Made by a program: the position numbers and the translations under genes | Assembly (NCBI GenBank): GCA_043799405.1 | Contig: JAZDNT010000004.1 | Coordinates: forward strand, 70,206-114,637 | Length of the DNA: 44,432 nucleotides | Source: Candidatus Kerfeldbacteria bacterium | GTDB taxonomy: Bacteria; Patescibacteriota; Patescibacteriia; SBBC01 | Reading direction: 5' to 3' | Notes under the pieces: model-generated | The model's input: the letters and a program-made list of their open reading frames with translations, nothing else | Told to the model about the DNA's origin: nothing | The model's database searches: none | Shown here: positions 1,758 to 44,432 of the stretch, piece after piece | Layout of the letters: every line of letters begins with the position of its first letter | Numbering within the stretch: position 1 is the stretch's first letter

Positions 1758-4706
1758 ATGCCAATTCCTCATTTACGGCCGACCGAACACAACCCGCCAG
1801 CGAATCAATACCAGCGCTCGTGGCGGGACCTGCAACAGCGGTCACCCGCCGCGCTGACAGGATTACTACGTTTTTTGTCTACAATCATTGGCGCGGCGTT
1901 TCGTCCTGTGAAAAAGCTATTTAAGAAACCTCGAAAAAAGAGAGGGTTCGTCCGGTTTTGGCTTCCGCTCGTGGGTATTGTTCTGCTGTTGTTCGTTTTT
2001 TCAATTTTCGTTGTCTTCGCCTGGTTTTCAAGAGACCTGCCAGACCCGGACAAGATCTCTGATCGGACCGTCGCCCAATCAACGAGAATTTACGCACGCG
2101 ACGGCAAAACCCTCCTCTATGAAATCCACGGGGATCAGCGGCGCACCGTTGTTAGACTTGAAGACATAAGCCCAGACGTTGTAAATGCGACTATCGCCAT
2201 CGAAGACAAGGACTTCTACAAACACGGCGGCATTTCGATCGTAGGCATCATTCGCGCCATCTGGCGAGACGTGACGACCGGATCGACGCAGGGCGGCTCA
2301 ACGATTACCCAGCAATTCGTCAAGAATGCCATACTCACCAGCGAAAAGAAGATCACGCGAAAGATCAAGGAGTGGGTGCTTGCATATCAAATTGAAAGGC
2401 GTTTCACGAAACAACAAATTCTGAAGCTCTACTTCAATGAAATTCCGTACGGCTCGAACGCGTACGGCGCTGAGGCGGCGTCTGAAACATACTTCGGCAA
2501 GCCGGCAAAAAACGTGAGCCTTGCCGAGGCAGCGATCCTCGCTGCGCTGCCGCAGGCTCCTTCGTTCTACTCCCCCTACGGCAACAATGCCGATCGTTTG
2601 CTCAGCAGGGCGCACTACATCCTCGACATCATGGTAAAACAGGGGTACATAACGCAAGATCAGGCGGACACGGCAAAAAAAGAAGAGGTTCTGAAAAACG
2701 TCAAACCAAAGCGTGAAACGATCATCGCCCCTCACTTCGTTTTCTACGTACGCGACCTCTTGGCAGAAAAGTACGGGGAACGCGTCGTTGAGCAAGGCGG
2801 CTTGCGCGTGGTAACGACGCTCGATATCGACAAACAGCTTGCTGCGGAGGGCGCGATCGCTGCCCAGGCAGAAACCAATCAGAAAAAGTATAAGGCATCC
2901 AACACCTCGCTTGTTTCAATCGATCCGAAGACGGGCCAGGTGCTCGCAATGGTCGGATCGAAAGATTACTTCGATGCCTCGATCGATGGCAACGTAAACG
3001 TCGCTCTTTCTCTACAGCAACCGGGCTCTTCTATAAAACCGATCGTGTACGCGACTGCGTTCAGCCGGGGGTTTACGCCGGAAACGATACTCTTCGATCT
3101 TTCGACGCACTTCAAAATGTCAGGGGCTCCCGATTACGTTCCGCACAACTACGACGGAAAGGAGCGCGGACCGCTTCCGATGCGTAAAACGCTTGCTGGG
3201 TCGCTCAATATTCCTGCCGTGAAAACACTTTTCCTTGCTGGCATTGACCGCGTCATCGATCAAGCACAAAAGATGGGGTACACGACGTGGGAAGACCGTT
3301 CTCGGCTCGGCCTTTCTCTCGTGCTTGGGGGTGCCGAAGTTAAGCTCATCGAGCATACCGCAGCGTTCGGTTCGCTTGCTGCCGATGGCGACCTTCATAC
3401 TACAGCGCCGATCATGAAGGTTGAGGACAAGAACGGAAAACTTCTAGAAGAGTACAAGGATTCGAGCACGAACGTGCTCGATAAGAACGTTGCGCGTACT
3501 GTTTCAGACGTCCTGAGCGACAATAAAGCGCGCAGCTTCATCTTCGGAGAGCGCAACTGGTTAACGCTTCCTGATAGGCCTGTTGCGGCAAAGACGGGCA
3601 CAACTCAGGAATTCCGCGATGCATGGACTGTCGGGTATACGTCGGCGACCGGAAAAGGGCCTGCGATCGTCACCGGCGTCTGGGTCGGCAATAACGACAA
3701 TTCGCCCATGAGGTCCGGGGCGGACGGCTCGGTCGTGGCCGCACCGATCTGGAACAGTTACATGCGAAAGGCAATGGCTAATACCAAAGCGGAATCTTTT
3801 AAAAAGCCCGTTCCGTCGAAAACGACGAAGCCGATACTGCAGGGGAGGCTTGAGGGAGAGGCGCCGATCAAGGTTGACGCGATCACTGGTAAGGAAATTC
3901 CTGCCTCCTGTCTTGATAAGTGGCCGCAGGGATTCATCGTCGAAAAGTCCGTCAAGGCCGTTCATACTATCCTCTACTACATTGACCCGAATGACCCAGC
4001 CGGCCCGCCACCCCCCGATCCAACAAAAAACCCGCAGTTCTCCTCGTGGGATGCCCCGATCCAGCGGTGGGCTAAGAAAAACGGGTATGTAGAGAGCCGC
4101 CCCCCAGTGGAGTCGTGCTCTTTGCGCACCGAGGCTCCGTCAGTGCTCATTGTTGCTCCCGTCCAAAATGCGACCATCCGCGATACGAGCGTTAGCGTGA
4201 GCGTTACTACCCCGAGCCCGAAACCGATTATTGAGATTGCCTACTACCTTGATGGCGTCGCCCTTGCCCAACCGTCTGCCGCGGCAACAACGGCAACCGT
4301 GAATCTCGAGAGTGTGCCCAACGGCTACCACACCATTCGCGTCGTTGTTAAAGACGACGTTGGAAACACCGGGGAAGCGAGTGTCAGTATTAACATCTTA
4401 CGCGACCTTTCGGCTTCGAGTATATACTTCTTATCGCCCCCGTACAACGCTTCGTTTCCGGCTGGCTCCCAGATCGACCTTCGAGCGTTCGTATTCGACC
4501 CTTCTGGAATTGCGAGCTCTTCTTTTCAGGTAACCGCCCCCGATGGTTCTACGAGTACTATCGAGGCGGCCGTTGGTGGCGACTCGATTGCCTCTGCGAC
4601 GTGGCAGTCTCTATCGCTTCAGGGATCATGTCGCGCTGTATTTAAAGCGGTTACAGTAAGCAGTAAAACTCTTCAAACAGACGCCCTGTTGTTCACTCTT
4701 CTCTAG
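1758..4706 (+). CDS. Class A penicillin-binding protein (PBP1A family) with C-terminal Ig-like extension
   Basis: TM anchor; GT51 motifs EDKDFYKH, GGSTITQQ, RKIKE; transpeptidase SxxK (SSIK), SLN, KTGT. Confidence 0.95.
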   Translation: MPIPHLRPTEHNPPANQYQRSWRDLQQRSPAALTGLLRFLSTIIGAAFRPVKKLFKKPRKKRGFVRFWLPLVGIVLLLFVFSIFVVFAWFSRDLPDPDKISDRTVAQSTRIYARDGKTLLYEIHGDQRRTVVRLEDISPDVVNATIAIEDKDFYKHGGISIVGIIRAIWRDVTTGSTQGGSTITQQFVKNAILTSEKKITRKIKEWVLAYQIERRFTKQQILKLYFNEIPYGSNAYGAEAASETYFGKPAKNVSLAEAAILAALPQAPSFYSPYGNNADRLLSRAHYILDIMVKQGYITQDQADTAKKEEVLKNVKPKRETIIAPHFVFYVRDLLAEKYGERVVEQGGLRVVTTLDIDKQLAAEGAIAAQAETNQKKYKASNTSLVSIDPKTGQVLAMVGSKDYFDASIDGNVNVALSLQQPGSSIKPIVYATAFSRGFTPETILFDLSTHFKMSGAPDYVPHNYDGKERGPLPMRKTLAGSLNIPAVKTLFLAGIDRVIDQAQKMGYTTWEDRSRLGLSLVLGGAEVKLIEHTAAFGSLAADGDLHTTAPIMKVEDKNGKLLEEYKDSSTNVLDKNVARTVSDVLSDNKARSFIFGERNWLTLPDRPVAAKTGTTQEFRDAWTVGYTSATGKGPAIVTGVWVGNNDNSPMRSGADGSVVAAPIWNSYMRKAMANTKAESFKKPVPSKTTKPILQGRLEGEAPIKVDAITGKEIPASCLDKWPQGFIVEKSVKAVHTILYYIDPNDPAGPPPPDPTKNPQFSSWDAPIQRWAKKNGYVESRPPVESCSLRTEAPSVLIVAPVQNATIRDTSVSVSVTTPSPKPIIEIAYYLDGVALAQPSAAATTATVNLESVPNGYHTIRVVVKDDVGNTGEASVSINILRDLSASSIYFLSPPYNASFPAGSQIDLRAFVFDPSGIASSSFQVTAPDGSTSTIEAAVGGDSIASATWQSLSLQGSCRAVFKAVTVSSKTLQTDALLFTLL

Positions 4707-6372: not shown

Positions 6373-7740
6373 TTACACGTTGTAAAGACGTTGGCGGATG
6401 AGGTTGACGTCCTGGCGAACCCGCTCGTCGTTTTCAAGGACCCTGCTGATCTTTAGGACCGCATGCATGGCTGTTGTGTGGTCGCGCCCGCCAAGCTCTT
6501 GGCCGATGTTCGGGAAAGAGCACTTAAGTTCTTCTCGCATAAGGAACATCGCGATCTGTCGAGGAAAAACAAGGCCCTTTTTACGACTGTCTCCAACAAT
6601 ATCGTCCAGCGATAGGTCGTAGAACGATGAAACGGTATTGAGAATGATTTTTGGGGTGAGGCCGCCGCGCGGAGACCGCGAGGCAACTGACGCAAGCAGG
6701 GCTTTTGTGCTATCGAGCGTTGGCGCGGAATTATTGAGCTGATGGTACGCAATAATTCGGTTGAGGGCACCCTCGAGCTCGCGGACATTGGACTGAATGG
6801 TTGTTGCAAGAAAACGCAAGATGTCGTCCGAAAGCGAATAGGATTTTTCCTTACACTTCGATTCAAGAATCGCAATCCTTGTTTCAAGGTCTGGGCTTCC
6901 AATGTCAGCAATCATGCCCCACTCGAACCGAGAGGTGATCCTCGCCTCAAGCGACGGGATTGACTTCGGCGGCCTGTCGGACGTAACAACAATCTGTCGG
7001 TTCGTTTGATGCAGGGCGTTAAACGTATGGAAAAATTCTTCCTGGGTTCCCTCCTTGCCGGCAAGGAACTGGACGTCGTCGATAAGAAGAACGTCGACGT
7101 TTCGGTACTTGTTCTTGAACGACTCGGCCTGCCCGCGCGAAACTGCGTGTATGTAATCGTTGGTGAAGCGCTCGCAACTAACATAGAGCACGGTTTTGTC
7201 AGGGTAGAGTCTGAGCGTCTCATGGCCGATAGCCTGCATCAGGTGGGTTTTCCCAAGCCCTGCGCCGCCGTAGACAAACAGCGGGTTATACGTGGTTCCG
7301 GGTTTTTCGCACACTGCGAGCGCGGCCGCATGGGCGAGCGCGTTGCCCTTACCAACGACGAAATTGCTAAAGAGGTAGCGGGGGTTGAGGTTGAAGTCTT
7401 CGATTTTTGATCCGTTGCCGTTGGTAGCGGGTTTAGGGGCGGGGTGGACGAGCGTCGCGGTGGTTACCGAAGCCGCCTCACGTCTATGCGAAGCAGAGGC
7501 AACTTCGTAGGTAACTGCGAATGGTTTTTTTCCAACAACGTTCTCAACCGCCCTGATGATAAAGTCATGATATTTGTTTTGGAGCCAGCTTTGAGTAAAG
7601 GCGTTAGGTACGCCGACAACGGCCTGGTTGTCTTGTAACGATAAGACGAACGTATTTTTAAACCACGTCGTAAAATTAGCCTTACTGATGAGAAGCTCAA
7701 GCTCGCCGAGAACCGCTTGCCAGACTTGTTCGTTTGTCAT
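6373..7740 (-). CDS. dnaA: Chromosomal replication initiator DnaA
   Basis: NPLFVYGGAGLGKTHL Walker A, LLIDDVQF Walker B, NVRELEGAL, GGRDHTT domain IV signature. Confidence 0.99.
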   Translation of the reverse strand: MTNEQVWQAVLGELELLISKANFTTWFKNTFVLSLQDNQAVVGVPNAFTQSWLQNKYHDFIIRAVENVVGKKPFAVTYEVASASHRREAASVTTATLVHPAPKPATNGNGSKIEDFNLNPRYLFSNFVVGKGNALAHAAALAVCEKPGTTYNPLFVYGGAGLGKTHLMQAIGHETLRLYPDKTVLYVSCERFTNDYIHAVSRGQAESFKNKYRNVDVLLIDDVQFLAGKEGTQEEFFHTFNALHQTNRQIVVTSDRPPKSIPSLEARITSRFEWGMIADIGSPDLETRIAILESKCKEKSYSLSDDILRFLATTIQSNVRELEGALNRIIAYHQLNNSAPTLDSTKALLASVASRSPRGGLTPKIILNTVSSFYDLSLDDIVGDSRKKGLVFPRQIAMFLMREELKCSFPNIGQELGGRDHTTAMHAVLKISRVLENDERVRQDVNLIRQRLYNV

Positions 7741-10331: not shown

Positions 10332-11465
10332 ATGGAGCTATCGCCCCTCCAGCAAGCCGTTGAGCTCGCGAGCCGGAGCAAGAACGTTTTAATCTGCTTA
10401 CCGGTTAACCCGACATCCGATGCGATCGCCGGAGGTCTCGGGCTGTTCTTGTCATTCGAAAAATTGCAAAAGCGCGCACGGATCGTTTGCAGCAAATTTG
10501 AGCTCCCTTTAGGCCACGGATTTTTACCGAAGAGTAACGCGATCGAAAAAGAACTATCAAATATCAGGCAGTTCGTCATCGGCGTAGATACGTCGCGGAC
10601 GTCTATTGAGGACCTAAGCTACGCGATCGAAGGAAAGAAGCTCAATATCTACCTAACGCCGAAGGACGGTTTTTTTGAGGCGCGCGACGTGACCACGAGC
10701 GCGGGAGACTACGCATACGATCTGATCGTCGTGCTCGACGCGACAGACCTTGATTCGCTCGGTGACCTTGCAACGCGAAACGCGGAATTTTTTTATAAAA
10801 CGCCAGTTCTCAACATTGATCATCGCGCGAGCAATACACACTTCGGATCGGTGAACCTCGTCGACCTGCCCGCAACCTCGACCTCAGAGATAATCTTTGA
10901 GCTCGTAAAGGCGCTCGGATTCAACGTTCTCGATGAGCAGGTTGCGACAACGCTTCTCACGGGCATCATTTCGAAAACAAAGAGCTTTCAGACGCCAACA
11001 GTAACGCCACGCTCGCTCGCAATAGCAAGCCACCTCATTGCATCCGGCGCCCGCCGCGAAGAGATTATCGATAATCTGTATCAGTCAAAGCCGATCTCTA
11101 CGTTGAAACTGTGGGGCCGAGCCCTAGCTCGTGTCCAGCAAAAACACGATGGCAGGATGATTTACACGCTCCTGAGCGAGCAGGACTTTGAAAAGTCCGC
11201 TGCGACCGAAGACGACCTTCCGCGCGTGATCGACGAGCTCATTGTAAACGTGCCGACAGCGGAGATAATCGCGATCCTCTGCCTCAGGACCGGCAAGAAC
11301 GTAACGGCCCTCGTCAGCACCACAAGACCGTACGATCTGAAAAAGGCCTTTCCAGAAGGAAAGATCATGGGTAGTGCAAGCCTCATCTTGTTTAACACCC
11401 CGTTCCCCGACCTTACGAGCGCTGAAAACGACATAGTAAGCCGCGCCGGACGACTGCTTGAATAG
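10332..11465 (+). CDS. DHH-family phosphoesterase-like protein with degenerate motifs
   Basis: NPTSDAI, LIVVLD, NIDHR, STSEII, LLTGIISKT align with the DHH/NrnA layout. Confidence 0.8.
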   Translation: MELSPLQQAVELASRSKNVLICLPVNPTSDAIAGGLGLFLSFEKLQKRARIVCSKFELPLGHGFLPKSNAIEKELSNIRQFVIGVDTSRTSIEDLSYAIEGKKLNIYLTPKDGFFEARDVTTSAGDYAYDLIVVLDATDLDSLGDLATRNAEFFYKTPVLNIDHRASNTHFGSVNLVDLPATSTSEIIFELVKALGFNVLDEQVATTLLTGIISKTKSFQTPTVTPRSLAIASHLIASGARREEIIDNLYQSKPISTLKLWGRALARVQQKHDGRMIYTLLSEQDFEKSAATEDDLPRVIDELIVNVPTAEIIAILCLRTGKNVTALVSTTRPYDLKKAFPEGKIMGSASLILFNTPFPDLTSAENDIVSRAGRLLE

Positions 11466-41497: not shown

Positions 41498-41502
41498 AAA
41501 CT

Positions 41503-41537
41503 AACCCCACGACATGCCGTAAGGGCTAGTTCTTTTT
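41503..41537. terminator. Terminator-like hairpin between convergent genes
   Basis: AACTAACCC...GGGCTAGTT followed by CTTTTTG. Confidence 0.45.
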
Positions 41538-41553
41538 GTCTTGCTCGCGAGCC

Positions 41554-41637
41554 CTACTTGCGTCGCTTCGCGTGCTTTTTTGACTTCTTTACTTTCTTTG
41601 TTTTCTTGACCTTCTTCACCTTTCTCTTCTTTGCCAT
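41554..41637 (-). CDS. 27-aa Lys-rich peptide MAKKRKVKKVKKTKKVKKSKKHAKRRK
   Basis: Strong SD GGAAGGAGGTGA 6 nt before ATG; clean TAG; below the ORF-track cutoff. Confidence 0.8.
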   Translation of the reverse strand: MAKKRKVKKVKKTKKVKKSKKHAKRRK

Positions 41638-41701
41638 GTACCCTCACCTCCTTCCGGAGCCGGTGCGCTGACGCGCCACCGAGAGTGAAAAAAATTCTAC
41701 G

Positions 41702-41769
41702 TTATCCACAGTTACTAGTTCATCAATAATTGTAACACCATATGTATATAAATTATACGGTGTGGATAA
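41702..41769. promoter_or_regulatory. Two perfect, inverted DnaA boxes flanking an extended -10
   Basis: TTATCCACA 41702-10 and TGTGGATAA 41761-69; TGT-TACAAT on - at 41737-41729. Confidence 0.65.
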
Positions 41770-41829: not shown

Positions 41830-41851
41830 CGGCTAGCCCGGATCGTTATCT
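41830..41851 (-). mobile_element. Truncated attC-like half site
   Basis: On -: AGATAAC-gatc-CGGGCTAGCCG, the same 11-mer arm as the attC at 44042-44381; no partner arm found. Confidence 0.55.
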
Positions 41852-41874
41852 GGGCACTGTCCGAGAAATATTTC

Positions 41875-41931
41875 GACTAACGTTCACGAGTATACGATCG
41901 TGCGGAGCATATCGTATACTCGTTGTTAGCT
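41875..41931 (-). mobile_element. attC-like recombination site
   Basis: On -: AGCTAAC-a-ACGAGTATACGAT-(12 nt)-ATCGTATACTCGT-gaac-GTTAGTC. Confidence 0.8.
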
Positions 41932-42001
41932 GATGTGTTCCTTTTCTTTTGTCCCGCCAAGGCGGGACGCGGGTAAAAATCTTTCAAATTTCTTTTAGCC
42001 T

Positions 42002-43285
42002 TTATTTCAGTAAATCATCAAGCTCACAAGAGAGTAATGCCGACTTGTTGAGGACTATTTGCTCTTTTGGATTTAATTTATCTGCCGTCATGCGAATGAG
42101 TTTAGTTGTAATCGTATCACCCAGCATGACCCGGCTGGTTTTTTTAAAATATCTTTCTGTTTTCTGATAAAAAAGTGTGGCATACCGTCTCAACTTATCT
42201 TCTGAAGGTGGATGACTTGTCGCCCCATTGCTAGTAAATTCGATCATATCTTTTATTTTCTCACTTTCCTTGATTGGTATATTACCTTCGTTAAAATCAA
42301 TCCAGTAATCGCTCATCGAATACATTACACGGACCAATCCGCCATCTTCAGTTTTAAATGTATAAAGGAAAAAGAAATTATCGGGCATTAAATCGTGATG
42401 CACTCTGACGTGCGCTAATTCCGTCACGGTGCGGATTTTATAATCATCAAGCAATCGTAGATAGCTTTCCCGCCAGTTTCGAAGCCAGTTCTCGACGTAC
42501 GTGCGGTTCGTAAAAAGCGGCATAAGGTCCTGCTTGAGATTTTCGTCGCTTACTTTATTCATCTGCAACGTGAGCTTGTCAAAAATCGCACGCGGATTGT
42601 TGGTATCAATACCCTTGGCAATAAGATAATCGATATCAGGAACCACTTTTTTATTCATGTACCAAAGAAGGTCGTAGATATCGCGTCCTTTTTCCTCGTA
42701 CACCGCTTCGCCCACACCGCGGGTGCCACGCAAAAAGATGGCAGCTATCTTGCTTGCCATCAAAGCAGACATGTTGTAGGTCAAAATAACGAAAGAAAGC
42801 TGATCGCGGTTCATCGGCCGACGCTCAGTAACCGTTTTTGGAGCGACGAAATGATTAAGATCTATTTTTACATGGACCTGATTGGACGCGTGACCAAAGC
42901 CTAATGCTTCGCCAACAAGGAACTTTAAAAGGAGCCCTCTGCCGGTCGTTATTTTGATTGTCAGGAAATTAGGATCAGTGCCATACGTATCTTTAAAGTG
43001 ATCCTCTAGCTCTTTTTTCAGATCTGCTAAAAACGTTCCTGTTACAGCATGTGATACCTCAAAATCTAAATCCACTGACATGCGGTCAAGTCCGTGAATG
43101 ATCCGAAGCGCCGAACCGCCATACATCACCCATTTGCTGTATTCCGGATGATGATAAGTGAAGTTGAGAATGTAATACTGCAAAGCCTCTTTCAGCTTGT
43201 TTCTACGAGTTTCGGCATCAAGATCGCCATAAGCTGAGAGTTCATCAAGCTCTCTTTTAAGTATTGTTAGAATTTGTTCACTCAT
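42002..43285 (-). CDS. AbiEii-family nucleotidyltransferase toxin (type IV TA) with C-terminal extension
   Basis: YGGSALR, RMSVDLDF, SKI, RDIYDL; 8-nt overlap with the upstream antitoxin. Confidence 0.88.
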   Translation of the reverse strand: MSEQILTILKRELDELSAYGDLDAETRRNKLKEALQYYILNFTYHHPEYSKWVMYGGSALRIIHGLDRMSVDLDFEVSHAVTGTFLADLKKELEDHFKDTYGTDPNFLTIKITTGRGLLLKFLVGEALGFGHASNQVHVKIDLNHFVAPKTVTERRPMNRDQLSFVILTYNMSALMASKIAAIFLRGTRGVGEAVYEEKGRDIYDLLWYMNKKVVPDIDYLIAKGIDTNNPRAIFDKLTLQMNKVSDENLKQDLMPLFTNRTYVENWLRNWRESYLRLLDDYKIRTVTELAHVRVHHDLMPDNFFFLYTFKTEDGGLVRVMYSMSDYWIDFNEGNIPIKESEKIKDMIEFTSNGATSHPPSEDKLRRYATLFYQKTERYFKKTSRVMLGDTITTKLIRMTADKLNPKEQIVLNKSALLSCELDDLLK

Positions 43286-43895
43286 GAACGTGTTTTTTAA
43301 TCATGGTATTAAATTTTTCTCGCTCCTGGGTTTCCATTTCATCAATATCTATTCTTAGTTCCTTGACCAGTATATTAATGTTTTCCTGGTTCATGCCACG
43401 AAGCTGCCGAGTCTTGAAATATAGCAGATCATACAGTGCCTTTGAGGGTGAGGCGATAAAAAAGTCAAATCGACCTTTAACCAATGAGAAGCCTGAAAAT
43501 AAATCTTTCTTGATTGACTGATAGGCAAAATTTCCAGCCTTTGTCTGATACTCTCTTGTAACTTTCAACGTTACCGAGGTTACAGAATGGATAGCTTCCG
43601 TTGTGAGATTATAATACTGAAGCGCTGCCCATGAACTGACATATGACGGAGTTCGAATAACGTTGGCGAGATAAAACGAATAGGAAGCTTCACCCTTATT
43701 TTCATTGTAGAAATCTGAGGTTATATATAGCGCCCTCTTTAGCTGGAGAATTTCCTTGGATTTCAAGTAGCGGCTAATGTAGGTATCAACCGTAGTGCGC
43801 ATAAGCCCTAACTGCATTCCAAGCTGGTATACTGTGCTTTTACTGAAATGGGGCAAGCTTTTTAGCTGTTCTAAGAGATTTTTTCGGCTTTTCAT
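43278..43895 (-). CDS. AbiEi-family antitoxin/transcriptional regulator
   Basis: N-terminal wHTH (LKRALY), SYVSSWAALQYYNL, IASPSKALYD. Confidence 0.85.
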   Translation of the reverse strand: MKSRKNLLEQLKSLPHFSKSTVYQLGMQLGLMRTTVDTYISRYLKSKEILQLKRALYITSDFYNENKGEASYSFYLANVIRTPSYVSSWAALQYYNLTTEAIHSVTSVTLKVTREYQTKAGNFAYQSIKKDLFSGFSLVKGRFDFFIASPSKALYDLLYFKTRQLRGMNQENINILVKELRIDIDEMETQEREKFNTMIKKHVHE

Positions 43896-43900
43896 AAATA

Positions 43901-43936
43901 TGACAATAGTGTATCAGATGTGAAATGTAATGTCAA
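43901..43936 (-). promoter_or_regulatory. abiE promoter with an imperfect inverted-repeat operator
   Basis: TTGACA-17-TGA-TACACT; TGACATTA...TATTGTCA brackets the promoter core. Confidence 0.7.
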
Positions 43937-44041
43937 TTTAATGAATATTGAAGTTTTCCCTACTTGAAGGATGTGGGGAAAGAAATTTGAAAGATTTTTA
44001 CCCGCCCCGGGCGATAGCCCGGAAAATAAAAGGGGAATTTC

Positions 44042-44381
44042 AGCTAACGTTTCGGGCTAGCCGAAGTTTGGTCGGGTTACAATTTGCGCGGAGCGCCAAC
44101 CCGACCAAATTTGGGTGAGCGAGCTAATAATCCTATTTTATTCCTCGTAGTTTTTTGATCGTCCATTCAGTATGCCCCCAAAAATATTTCATGGAACCCA
44201 ATAGTGTAATAACGACAAATACTGTTCGCCATGTGTTTGATTCAAAAATAGAAAACCACAACTTCCATAAACCATAGGTGATTAAAATACCCACGAGATA
44301 AAACACTAACGACAGAATGACGATTTTTACTTTCATATATAGTAGATTATTAGCTCGCTCACCGGCTAGCCCGTGTTAGGT
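44042..44381 (-). mobile_element. Giant attC-like site containing a gene in its loop
   Basis: On -: ACCTAAC-a-CGGGCTAGCCG...CGGCTAGCCCG-aaac-GTTAGCT with an inner perfect 19-bp inverted repeat. Confidence 0.75.
44133..44336 (-). CDS. Small 2-TM membrane protein (67 aa)
   Basis: Two hydrophobic helices; fits exactly between the inverted repeats. Confidence 0.7.
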   Translation of the reverse strand: MKVKIVILSLVFYLVGILITYGLWKLWFSIFESNTWRTVFVVITLLGSMKYFWGHTEWTIKKLRGIK

Positions 44382-44393
44382 GATGTCGGCTGG

Positions 44394-44432
44394 CTATTTA
44401 TCAATCCATTTATATTTAAAAATACTCTTCCA
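44394..44432 (-). CDS. 3' end of an upstream cassette gene (...WKSIFKYKWIDK*), 5'-truncated by the window
   Basis: 13 open codons ending TAG 12 nt before the attC inverse core, the spacing expected for a cassette gene. Confidence 0.4.
   Translation of the reverse strand, partial: WKSIFKYKWIDK

Follow-up and report, generated by a model that had tools for sequence, protein, structure and literature searches.

The end of a 44,432-nt stretch of DNA from a Candidatus Kerfeldbacteria bacterium (a member of the Patescibacteria; contig JAZDNT010000004.1, positions 70,206 to 114,637; hereafter "the window") contains an AbiE toxin-antitoxin operon between hairpin sites that resemble the attC sites of integrons. 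On the minus strand, the last 2.6 kb begin with the 3′ end of a gene (44432-44394), followed by an attC-like site (44382-44040), the AbiEi/AbiEii operon (43895-42002), a 57-nt hairpin site (41933-41875), and a short remnant (41881-41830). A preliminary description had interpreted this segment as an integron-like cassette array of the CALIN type (cluster of attC sites lacking an integron integrase), and all attC-like and AbiE features that it had named lie where it had placed them. The DNA had been called AT-rich, and the G+C content of the array is indeed 39-42%, compared with 53-56% for the genome; it is back at the genome level just past the distal end of the array at 41830. In the following, G000 denotes the analysed genome (1.03 Mb), C1 the contig of the window, C2 the contig that overlaps its end, and L001 the locus on C2. 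L012 is a related metagenome-assembled genome (MAG), L007 a Kerfeldbacteria array, and X1 a groundwater sequencing run. The features of the segment are as follows ("+" marks positions on the plus strand).

44394-44432, minus strand: 3′ end of a HEPN/AbiU2-like gene (216 aa), placed via a 98-nt contig overlap; the cassette begins on C2
44040-44382, minus strand: composite attC-like site of the AbiU2 cassette, with R″ CACCTAAC (+44375-82) and R′ GTT (+44046-48); repeats I4, I5, and I17
44133-44336, minus strand: ORF67, an open reading frame (ORF) of 67 codons from the ORF list, inside the composite site, for a predicted small two-helix membrane protein
41881-44047, minus strand: AbiE cassette, 2167 bp, read from the sequence as TT of GTTAGCT (44047) to G of the next GTT (41881)
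43979-44048, minus strand: 5′ arm of the terminal inverted repeat, with its own side hairpin CCGGGCTATCGCCCGG; repeats I1 and I3
43896-43945, minus strand: AbiE promoter/operator, i.e. TTGACA, 17 nt, TACACT, with a TGACA...TGTCA repeat; downstream of the 5′ arm
43278-43895, minus strand: AbiEi, antitoxin and regulator, 205 aa (PADLOC AbiEi, 1.8e-38)
42002-43285, minus strand: AbiEii, nucleotidyltransferase toxin, 427 aa (Pfam PF08843, 2.5e-21; PADLOC, 7.7e-29)
41925-41995, minus strand: 3′ arm of the inverted repeat, ending in R″ TCAGCTAAC, with the side hairpin GTCCCGCC-TTGG-GGCGGGAC
41869-41932, minus strand: simple attC-like site, AAC-A-ACGAGTATACGAT-ATGCTCCGCACG-ATCGTATACTCGT-GAAC-GTTAGTC-GAAAT; repeat I9 (covariance model R1, 85.9 bits, E = 2.4e-20)
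41830-41881, minus strand: distal array end, i.e. an ORF-less short module GTTAGTCGAAAT...CCCAGATAAC, then a truncated half-site GATCC-GGGCTAGCCG; repeats I2 and D16

The AbiE cassette and its ends

The identification of the operon as AbiE was corroborated by the Pfam family and by the PADLOC profiles for both proteins. The two genes are adjacent and overlap by 8 nt. As in other AbiE systems (type IV toxin-antitoxin/abortive infection), the operon has the typical two-gene structure and an autoregulation-type promoter repeat, and the proteins show nothing unusual; homologues of AbiEii across Patescibacteria have identities of 72-91%. What sets this operon apart is that it is packaged as a cassette whose terminal inverted repeats are 70 nt long.

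The cassette length of 2167 bp was confirmed, and so was the exact complementarity of its ends that had been noted before: its first nine nucleotides, TCAGCTAAC (+ 44040-44048), and its last nine, GTTAGCTGA (+ 41925-41933), are exact reverse complements. The complementarity extends, imperfectly, to about 70 nt (41925-41995/43979-44048). When the junction of a circular form is modelled, the predicted fold (−73 kcal/mol) is a hairpin of about 100 bp that bears two side hairpins. The arms of the inverted repeat exist in at least three versions, and within each version both arms match each other. Between the window and X1, the 3′ arm has six differences, all of which are mirrored in the 5′ arm, and the changes in the arms of L007 are likewise mirrored.

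An RNA-level role of the long inverted repeat was considered and rejected. Transcription from the AbiE promoter starts downstream of the 5′ arm, and this arm is therefore missing from the operon's own mRNA, which suggests that the repeat acts at the DNA level. The promoter/operator is the sole upstream stretch that is conserved over 49 AbiE loci. A miniature inverted-repeat transposable element or a transposon with terminal inverted repeats was rejected as well: the inverted repeat exists, yet no direct repeat flanks it consistently, and the NUDIX cassette on C2 (see below) is flanked by AAC and AGC. GC-clamped mini-hairpins of the form CCCGCC...GGCGGG occur at least 11 times in the genome, plus once in the AbiE 3′ arm (41951-41968).

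Continuation of the array on an overlapping contig

The end of the window is the end of C1, and it overlaps the reverse complement of the C2 end by exactly 98 nt; no overlaps were found for the other contig ends of the genome. The G+C content is low at both joined ends, the cumulative GC skew keeps the same slope across the join, and of the two arms of the perfect 19-nt inverted repeat that encloses ORF67, one lies within the overlap and the other is found in C1 alone.

Reading outward on C2, the HEPN/AbiU2-like gene (L001:9291-9941; Pfam HEPN_AbiU2, 7e-07) is followed by a 57-nt hairpin site, a NUDIX gene, a second composite site with a split ORF of 85 and 75 codons, a 141-codon membrane-anchored ORF, the sequence GGTTCGCATAATAACGA|GTTGTCC, a divergent tyrosine recombinase gene, a tRNA-Ala gene, and a small GIY-YIG gene. 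The site of the NUDIX cassette is near-identical to the window site at 41875-41933. The platform thus delimited comprises about 5.1 kb in total, window positions 41830-44432 being its distal half, and its cargo consists mostly of anti-phage genes.

These findings modify the preliminary description. It was correct that the window itself contains no integrase, yet a recombinase gene starts about 2.6 kb past the window end on C2. Beyond 44432, where a search for more sites and for an integron integrase (IntI) with the I2 insertion, the IntI-specific domain, had been suggested, further sites and a recombinase were found, but the I2 insertion is absent. As a recombinase and an attI-like site are present at its head, the array is a complete platform, and the CALIN label has to be abandoned.

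The split ORF (L001:8056-8558; C2:493532-494034) has its 85 and 75 codons in different frames, which may reflect two small genes, a frameshift in a pseudogene, or an error in sequencing. No family was matched, and a kinship with AbiU2 was rejected, as a comparison revealed no relation. The GIY-YIG gene (88 aa, stand-alone) and the tRNA-Ala(UGC) gene lie directly behind the recombinase gene (L001:5998-6368; C2:491474-491844).

Structure and distribution of the recombination sites

On the minus strand, the sites follow the scheme ...YTAAC-A-(stem-loop)-RAAC-GTTRNNY-GAAAT. At the junctions in the genome, the 5′ side has the form ACATC-NNNN-AAC-A-(stem) and the 3′ side the form (stem)-RAAC-GTT-RNNY-GAAAT. 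The spacer is asymmetric, with 1 nt on one side and 4 nt on the other. The simple site of the window has perfect 13-bp stems (41886-98/41911-23) and the loop ATGCTCCGCACG; the GCTCCGC mini-loop of the preliminary description is a conserved loop motif in the sites. The motif AACGTT[AG]NN[CT]GAAAT occurs five times on both strands of the 1.03-Mb genome, compared with about 0.12 occurrences expected from base odds, and four of the five copies are found on one strand of the 5-kb array. The fifth copy (C4:47983) was rejected as a site: it has no hairpin and a normal G+C content and is therefore a chance match. A generic genome scan for AAC-hairpin-GTT was also discarded, because its 51 matches were mainly ordinary hairpins and the pattern is unspecific without the flanks.

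The covariance model R1 was built from six simple sites of G000 and L012, which have compensatory changes in five of the 13 stem pairs. A search of 1.08 Mb of loci with R1 yielded about 50 further sites (E < 1e-3). Sites are present in about 29 of the about 45 loci with more than 1 kb upstream of the recombinase ortholog, and, with a single exception, the sites are located upstream of the recombinase gene and on the strand opposite to it. In the alignment of the R1 hits, 12 of the 13 stem pairs covary, and 94% of the cells are paired, compared with 26-40% when the partners are slid. Simple sites have a length of 57 nt and composite sites one of 340-600 nt; AAC and GTT, which are invariant, are separated by covarying stems of variable length (38-146 nt). 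Of the classical attC definition, an imperfect palindrome of 57-141 nt with R″ RYYYAAC and R′ GTTRRRY, the RYYY/RRRY parts fit only partially, and no family in Rfam matches the sites.

Hairpins between genes could also be mere terminators or regulatory structures in an ordinary accessory island without any mobility. Their intergenic location and the fact that AbiE has its own promoter are compatible with this explanation, but no T-run follows the stems, and relatives at the level of the phylum have retained AAC, GTT, and a tail similar to G-AAAT. Furthermore, the same cassette occurs with different neighbours, the start of a cassette complements its own end, and the arrays are hypervariable. 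We regard a purely regulatory role as highly improbable.

A conserved 2-nt mismatch is located 10-11 nt from GTT (e.g. 44036-44040 versus 41934-41938, and in cassettes of C2 and L012). GAAAT at the cassette start stands against ACATC at the end, the reverse complement of which is GATGT; on the complementary strand, this results in a T.G wobble and a T.T mismatch. This asymmetry may set the strand choice.

The recombinase and the attI-like site

The array recombinase (279 aa, divergently transcribed) has an intact Phage_integrase and SAM_4 architecture. The best NCBIfam match is the integron integrase family TIGR02249 (234 bits, cut-off 265), while XerA_Arch has a score of 212 bits (cut-off 220) and PRK15417 one of 163 bits (cut-off 435). 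The best match in the PDB is VchIntIA (2a3v, 163 bits), compared with 151 bits for XerA (4a8e). The alignment with 2a3v splits in two, with query residues 176-191 opposite chain residues 177-229; here, 15 residues of the query face 52 of IntI, precisely at the IntI-specific domain. Judged by sequence, the enzyme appears to be intermediate between IntI and XerA. Its family is very large in Patescibacteria, with identities of 55-80% and lengths of about 270-280 aa. Eight relatives have at most one ortholog of the array recombinase per genome and one XerC/D-like gene, the identity being about 35%. According to Messier & Roy (2001, cited in PMC9668308), IntI activity requires the IntI-specific domain, and archaeal IntIs retain the additional domain (PMC9668308).

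Next to the recombinase gene lies the attI-like site TTCGCATAATAACGA|GTT. The footprint TTCG(C/T)ATAATAAC(G/T)A-GTT is common to G000, L012, and L007, and the similarity stops right after GTT; the site of G004 differs. The sequence that follows the attI GTT matches that first cassette's own end. The comparative footprint would be compatible with an insertion at G|TT of attI.

Two explanations that derive the array from known recombination systems can be weighed on this basis. The first is a canonical integron remnant (CALIN), with true attC sites and a classical IntI elsewhere in the genome or lost. It would account for the AAC...GTT geometry, the 57-nt simple site, the complementarity of start and end, and the richness of the cassettes in defence and toxin-antitoxin genes. 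However, a recombinase and an attI-like site head the array, and none of the five tyrosine recombinases in the genome is a full IntI, the array-linked one alone scoring best as IntI. The sites themselves have no extrahelical bases, a conserved loop, and no Rfam match, and a remnant of this kind is hardly to be expected.

The second is an Xer-type recombination of duplex DNA, in which a XerA-like enzyme acts on modules between inverted sites, as with the pdif modules of Acinetobacter or with integrative mobile elements exploiting Xer (IMEX) at dif. A recombinase without the additional IntI domain and with a XerA_Arch score near the cut-off would fit, and every module (GTT...AAC or AAC...GTT) lies between inverted repeats, as in pdif modules. 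Candidate-phyla recombinases were placed in an Xer-related "Cand" subgroup and were treated as Xer substitutes (Smyshlyaev et al. 2021, PMC8138268). Conversely, no 11-6-11 dif-like core was recognised by eye in attI or in the sites, and AAC and GTT with covarying stems of variable length suit a folded site. A separate XerC/D-like gene exists in G000 and in its relatives, and the cassettes are all co-oriented, with no sign of inversion. In addition, the array is located about 35-40 kb away both from dnaA (window about 6907-7389; C1:77112-77594) and from the point where the cumulative GC skew of the joined contigs reaches its minimum (C1 60-80 kb), i.e. away from the terminus. These two markers indicate that the replication origin is probably within the window, about 35 kb from the array, and on the same grounds a dif site at the terminus was rejected. 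Overall, we judge the Xer-type explanation to be unlikely.

Two further observations concern the surroundings of the array and other recombinase genes. Two perfect DnaA boxes, TTATCCACA and TGTGGATAA (41702-41710 and 41761-41769), are inverted, 59 nt apart, and located just outside the array, upstream of a highly basic 48-codon ORF (41501-41647, minus strand) with a strong ribosome-binding site; the genome contains 15 perfect DnaA boxes. A tandem trio of tyrosine recombinase genes (G000 C4:114316-116674) resembles the "recombinases in trio" element.

Cassettes and arrays in relatives

The cassettes are co-oriented. Each starts with GTT-NNNN-G.. and ends with ..C-NNNN-AAC, the NNNN of the end being the complement of that of the start, and a hairpin site follows. 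For eight cassettes of G000 and L012, we compared the first 26 nt with the reverse complement of the last 26 nt: of 23 positions, 14.9 agree between a start and its own end and 7.5 between a start and the ends of other cassettes. L012 has a recombinase with 72% identity and the same attI up to GTT. Its four cassettes each extend from GTT+x to the complement of x + AAC, and behind each lies a site composed of AAC-A, two stem arms (13 bp) around the loop ATGCTCCGCACG, and RAAC-GTT.

The AbiE cassette recurs with identities of 87-92% in L007, L011, L173, L175, and X1, where its neighbours differ. The array behind the L007 recombinase contains HicAB, VanW, DUF4160, AbiE, and Fic, in L011 the genes are NUDIX, AbiE, GrpB, and a deaminase, and the X1 copy is located on a 13.6-kb contig. 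None of the sequencing runs searched holds the core of the window; X1-X4 carry only relatives of the AbiE cassette. The proximal segment (attI to AbiU2, on C2) is absent from same-genus and same-family genomes except for a 60-nt match beside the G004 recombinase. An attempt to trace covariation of the cassette ends via 80 metagenomic AbiE loci was abandoned, as the contexts are unrelated at 70-80% identity, with only the promoter/operator conserved, and L092 and L172 were rejected as arrays.

Hits of R1 were found in 18 of the 31 whole genomes of relatives, clustered on one strand. In four genomes (G011, G013, G015, and G016), the site cluster abuts the single-copy recombinase ortholog in divergent orientation, and in two (G007 and G014) the recombinase is at a contig start. 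In many public MAG contigs (L015-L017, L022, L034, L037, L038, L044, L047, L050, and others), the recombinase gene begins 100-300 nt from the contig end; strain-variable arrays would lead to such contig breaks just upstream of the recombinase gene.

Several arrays have additional features. G013 contains extra site clusters far from the recombinase (C2:323410-325512, 658981-659658, and 758686-760599), and G009 contains sites (C2:149621-151169) and no recombinase ortholog; these are true CALIN-like arrays of the present system. In L007, an ORF-less 32-nt mini-cassette, GTTGTGCAAAATCGCTCCGCTCTTTGCACAAC, with a long site is present twice (2856-3020 and 3932-4085), and a second attI-like copy, ATAATAACTAGTTGTGC, lies deep in the array (11111-11125). 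A related mini-cassette is found in L175.

Composite sites with nested ORFs

Two of the four full sites in the genome are composite: the inner hairpin, which has the conserved loop, is separated from the outer stem by an ORF in a perfect inverted repeat. In the site at 44040-44382, the outer stem (44363-73/44053-63) is followed by GAAAC-GTTAGCT at the R′ side, the perfect 19-nt inverted repeat (44345-63/44114-32) encloses ORF67, and the inner hairpin (about 44064-44113) has the loop GCGCTCCGCGC. The predicted fold is a three-way junction (−64.5 kcal/mol). ORF67 has no match in Pfam, NCBIfam, or PADLOC.

In L007, the same outer shell contains a different ORF (DUF4160), and another composite site encloses HicAB. 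The X1 contig has the same R″ and outer stem (CACCTAAC-AC-GGGCTAGCCG...CGGCTAGCCC-GAAAC-GTT) with a plain 11-nt loop. Compared with X1, the window site contains a 285-nt insert (44072-44356; ORF67 and the hairpin), and X1 joins 44071 to 44357 (one contig, 85% likeness). On either side, portions of the insert are paired with what was originally the loop.

The composite sites could represent a second insertion route, by which panhandle modules are placed into the loops of folded sites, resulting in cassettes within cassettes. A panhandle module would consist of an ORF enclosed by perfect inverted repeats and, in some cases, a hairpin of its own; examples are ORF67, the 85/75-aa ORF, and DUF4160 and HicAB of L007. 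The enzyme for loop insertion may then be the insert-less IntI/Xer-like recombinase or an HUH enzyme. We consider this second route doubtful; if true, Patescibacteria have a general single-stranded-hairpin mechanism for inserting genes into structured DNA.

The 1-Mb genome contains three HUH (Y1_Tnp/RAYT-like) genes (C4:197004, C2:389443, and C2:181804). It is conceivable that all modules are moved by another enzyme, e.g. these HUH Y1 transposases, or by a foldback/replication process, and merely accumulate beside the recombinase gene. The presence of the Y1_Tnp genes and of ORF modules with perfect inverted repeats nested in hairpins would be in line with this proposal. It does not explain why, in about 29 loci and several whole genomes, the sites keep one position and one strand with respect to the ortholog of the recombinase, or why the attI footprint ends at GTT, and no Y1 gene is found near the array. 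A leading role of another enzyme is thus very unlikely.

Discussion

The architecture of the array, the family-wide link between sites and recombinase, the covariation of the stems, the attI-GTT footprint, and the reuse of cassettes in different arrays are observed. We conclude, with a probability of about 0.7, that the segment 41830-44432 forms the distal half of a chromosomal platform for gene cassettes, of a type that is common in Patescibacteria and that has an integron-like mechanism. The platform is integron-like and is not a member of the integron family as currently defined. The preliminary description was right about an integron-like, hairpin-bounded cassette array, both for this genome and for its relatives, and a canonical integron is contradicted by the missing I2 domain, which no recombinase of the genome has, the perfect stems, the conserved loop, an end complementarity of 16-70 nt, and the nested ORFs.

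By analogy with integrons, the recombinase would act on folded single strands and would cut and rejoin at or beside the conserved G|TT of two folded sites. A cassette would be excised as a circle, in which its own two ends would pair and thereby complete the site, and the circle could be reinserted at attI. For AbiE, the predicted junction of the 2167-bp circle is ...GAAC-G|TTAGCTGAAAT, and the predicted chromosomal junction after deletion of the cassette is ...CCCGAAAC-G|TTAGTCGAAAT. The AbiE operon probably both defends against phage and stabilises the array.

Several points weigh against a platform of this type. The recombinase is devoid of about 37 aa at the position of the IntI-specific domain. 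The stems are perfect and extrahelical bases are absent, and the composite sites, with their length of 340-600 nt and their internal ORFs, depart from a classical attC. The join of C1 and C2 depends on an assembly overlap, more distant AbiE homologues (70-80% identity) do not have this packaging, and excision, circles, and strand choice are all steps that we infer by analogy. Lastly, X1 and L173 have another hairpin after AbiE than the window, and the half-site before AbiE is common to the window and L007. This flank pattern is not predicted by a strict rule that attC travels with the upstream ORF. Under an alternative rule, the hairpin travels with the downstream ORF, and the evidence pulls both ways: the common half-site and the differing hairpins downstream of AbiE argue for it, whereas in three genomes no hairpin precedes the first cassette, which begins directly at the attI GTT, and X1, L173, and L011 have related L″ arms after AbiE.

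Integron recombination is thought to depend on the IntI-specific domain, and, to our knowledge, no integrons have been reported from the candidate phyla radiation (CPR). Sedentary chromosomal integrons, e.g. the Vibrio cholerae superintegron, are the most similar system known and share with the platform a divergent recombinase with an adjacent attI, co-oriented, mostly single-gene cassettes, AAC...GTT hairpin sites with a G|TT footprint, the complementarity of start and end, and near-identical sites per array. They are also similarly rich in toxin-antitoxin and defence genes, the toxin-antitoxin cassettes having their own promoter. In contrast to them, the present recombinase has no extra domain, the sites have no extrahelical bases, a 1-nt/4-nt spacer, and the conserved loop GCTCCGC, the end complementarity of 16-70 nt contains a conserved 2-nt mismatch, and ORFs are nested in some sites. 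Tentatively, the coding-strand complement would be on the lagging-strand template, which is opposite to most sedentary integrons (PMC5371416).

Archaeal integrons likewise occur outside the classical bacterial hosts, in uncultured metagenomic lineages (Ghaly et al. 2022, PMC9668308). Their IntI has the additional domain, which is missing here, and their attC sites were found with the standard attC model (PMC9668308), which would probably not hold for the present sites. Archaeal XerA/dif and the "Cand" subgroup (PMC8138268) have a similarly short recombinase of about 270-280 aa without the insertion, and the scores of the present enzyme are close to those of XerA. Differences are its slightly better IntI score, its occurrence as a second recombinase beside a XerC/D-like one, and its association with a variable cassette array near the origin instead of a dif site at the terminus. 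The pdif modules of Acinetobacter plasmids are likewise discrete modules (often with toxin-antitoxin or resistance genes) with inverted sites in many contexts. However, pdif sites are 28-bp duplex XerC/XerD sites of alternating orientation, whereas the sites described here are covarying hairpins of variable length in fixed orientation, with an adjacent dedicated recombinase. Of the alternatives to integrons, Xer/dif and pdif modules come nearest, but they differ in the form of the sites and in chromosomal position. In a literature search, we found no description of cassette arrays in Patescibacteria or of an integron-type platform with an insert-less recombinase.

The results suggest that cassette platforms with folded AAC...GTT sites are widespread in Patescibacteria and are operated by a short recombinase that stands between Xer and IntI. 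As the arrays break assemblies at attI, accessory genes of the CPR are likely to be under-counted. Most metagenomic contigs with "integron-type" recombinases are without recognisable attC (2026 study, PMC13323075), and the platform would account for such recombinases, for which standard tools find no attC. It would also account for the exchange of defence and toxin-antitoxin genes among bacteria with 1-Mb genomes. The platform bears on the origins of integrons, for it is a testable candidate for an intermediate, or for a parallel invention, between Xer/dif recombination and integrons.

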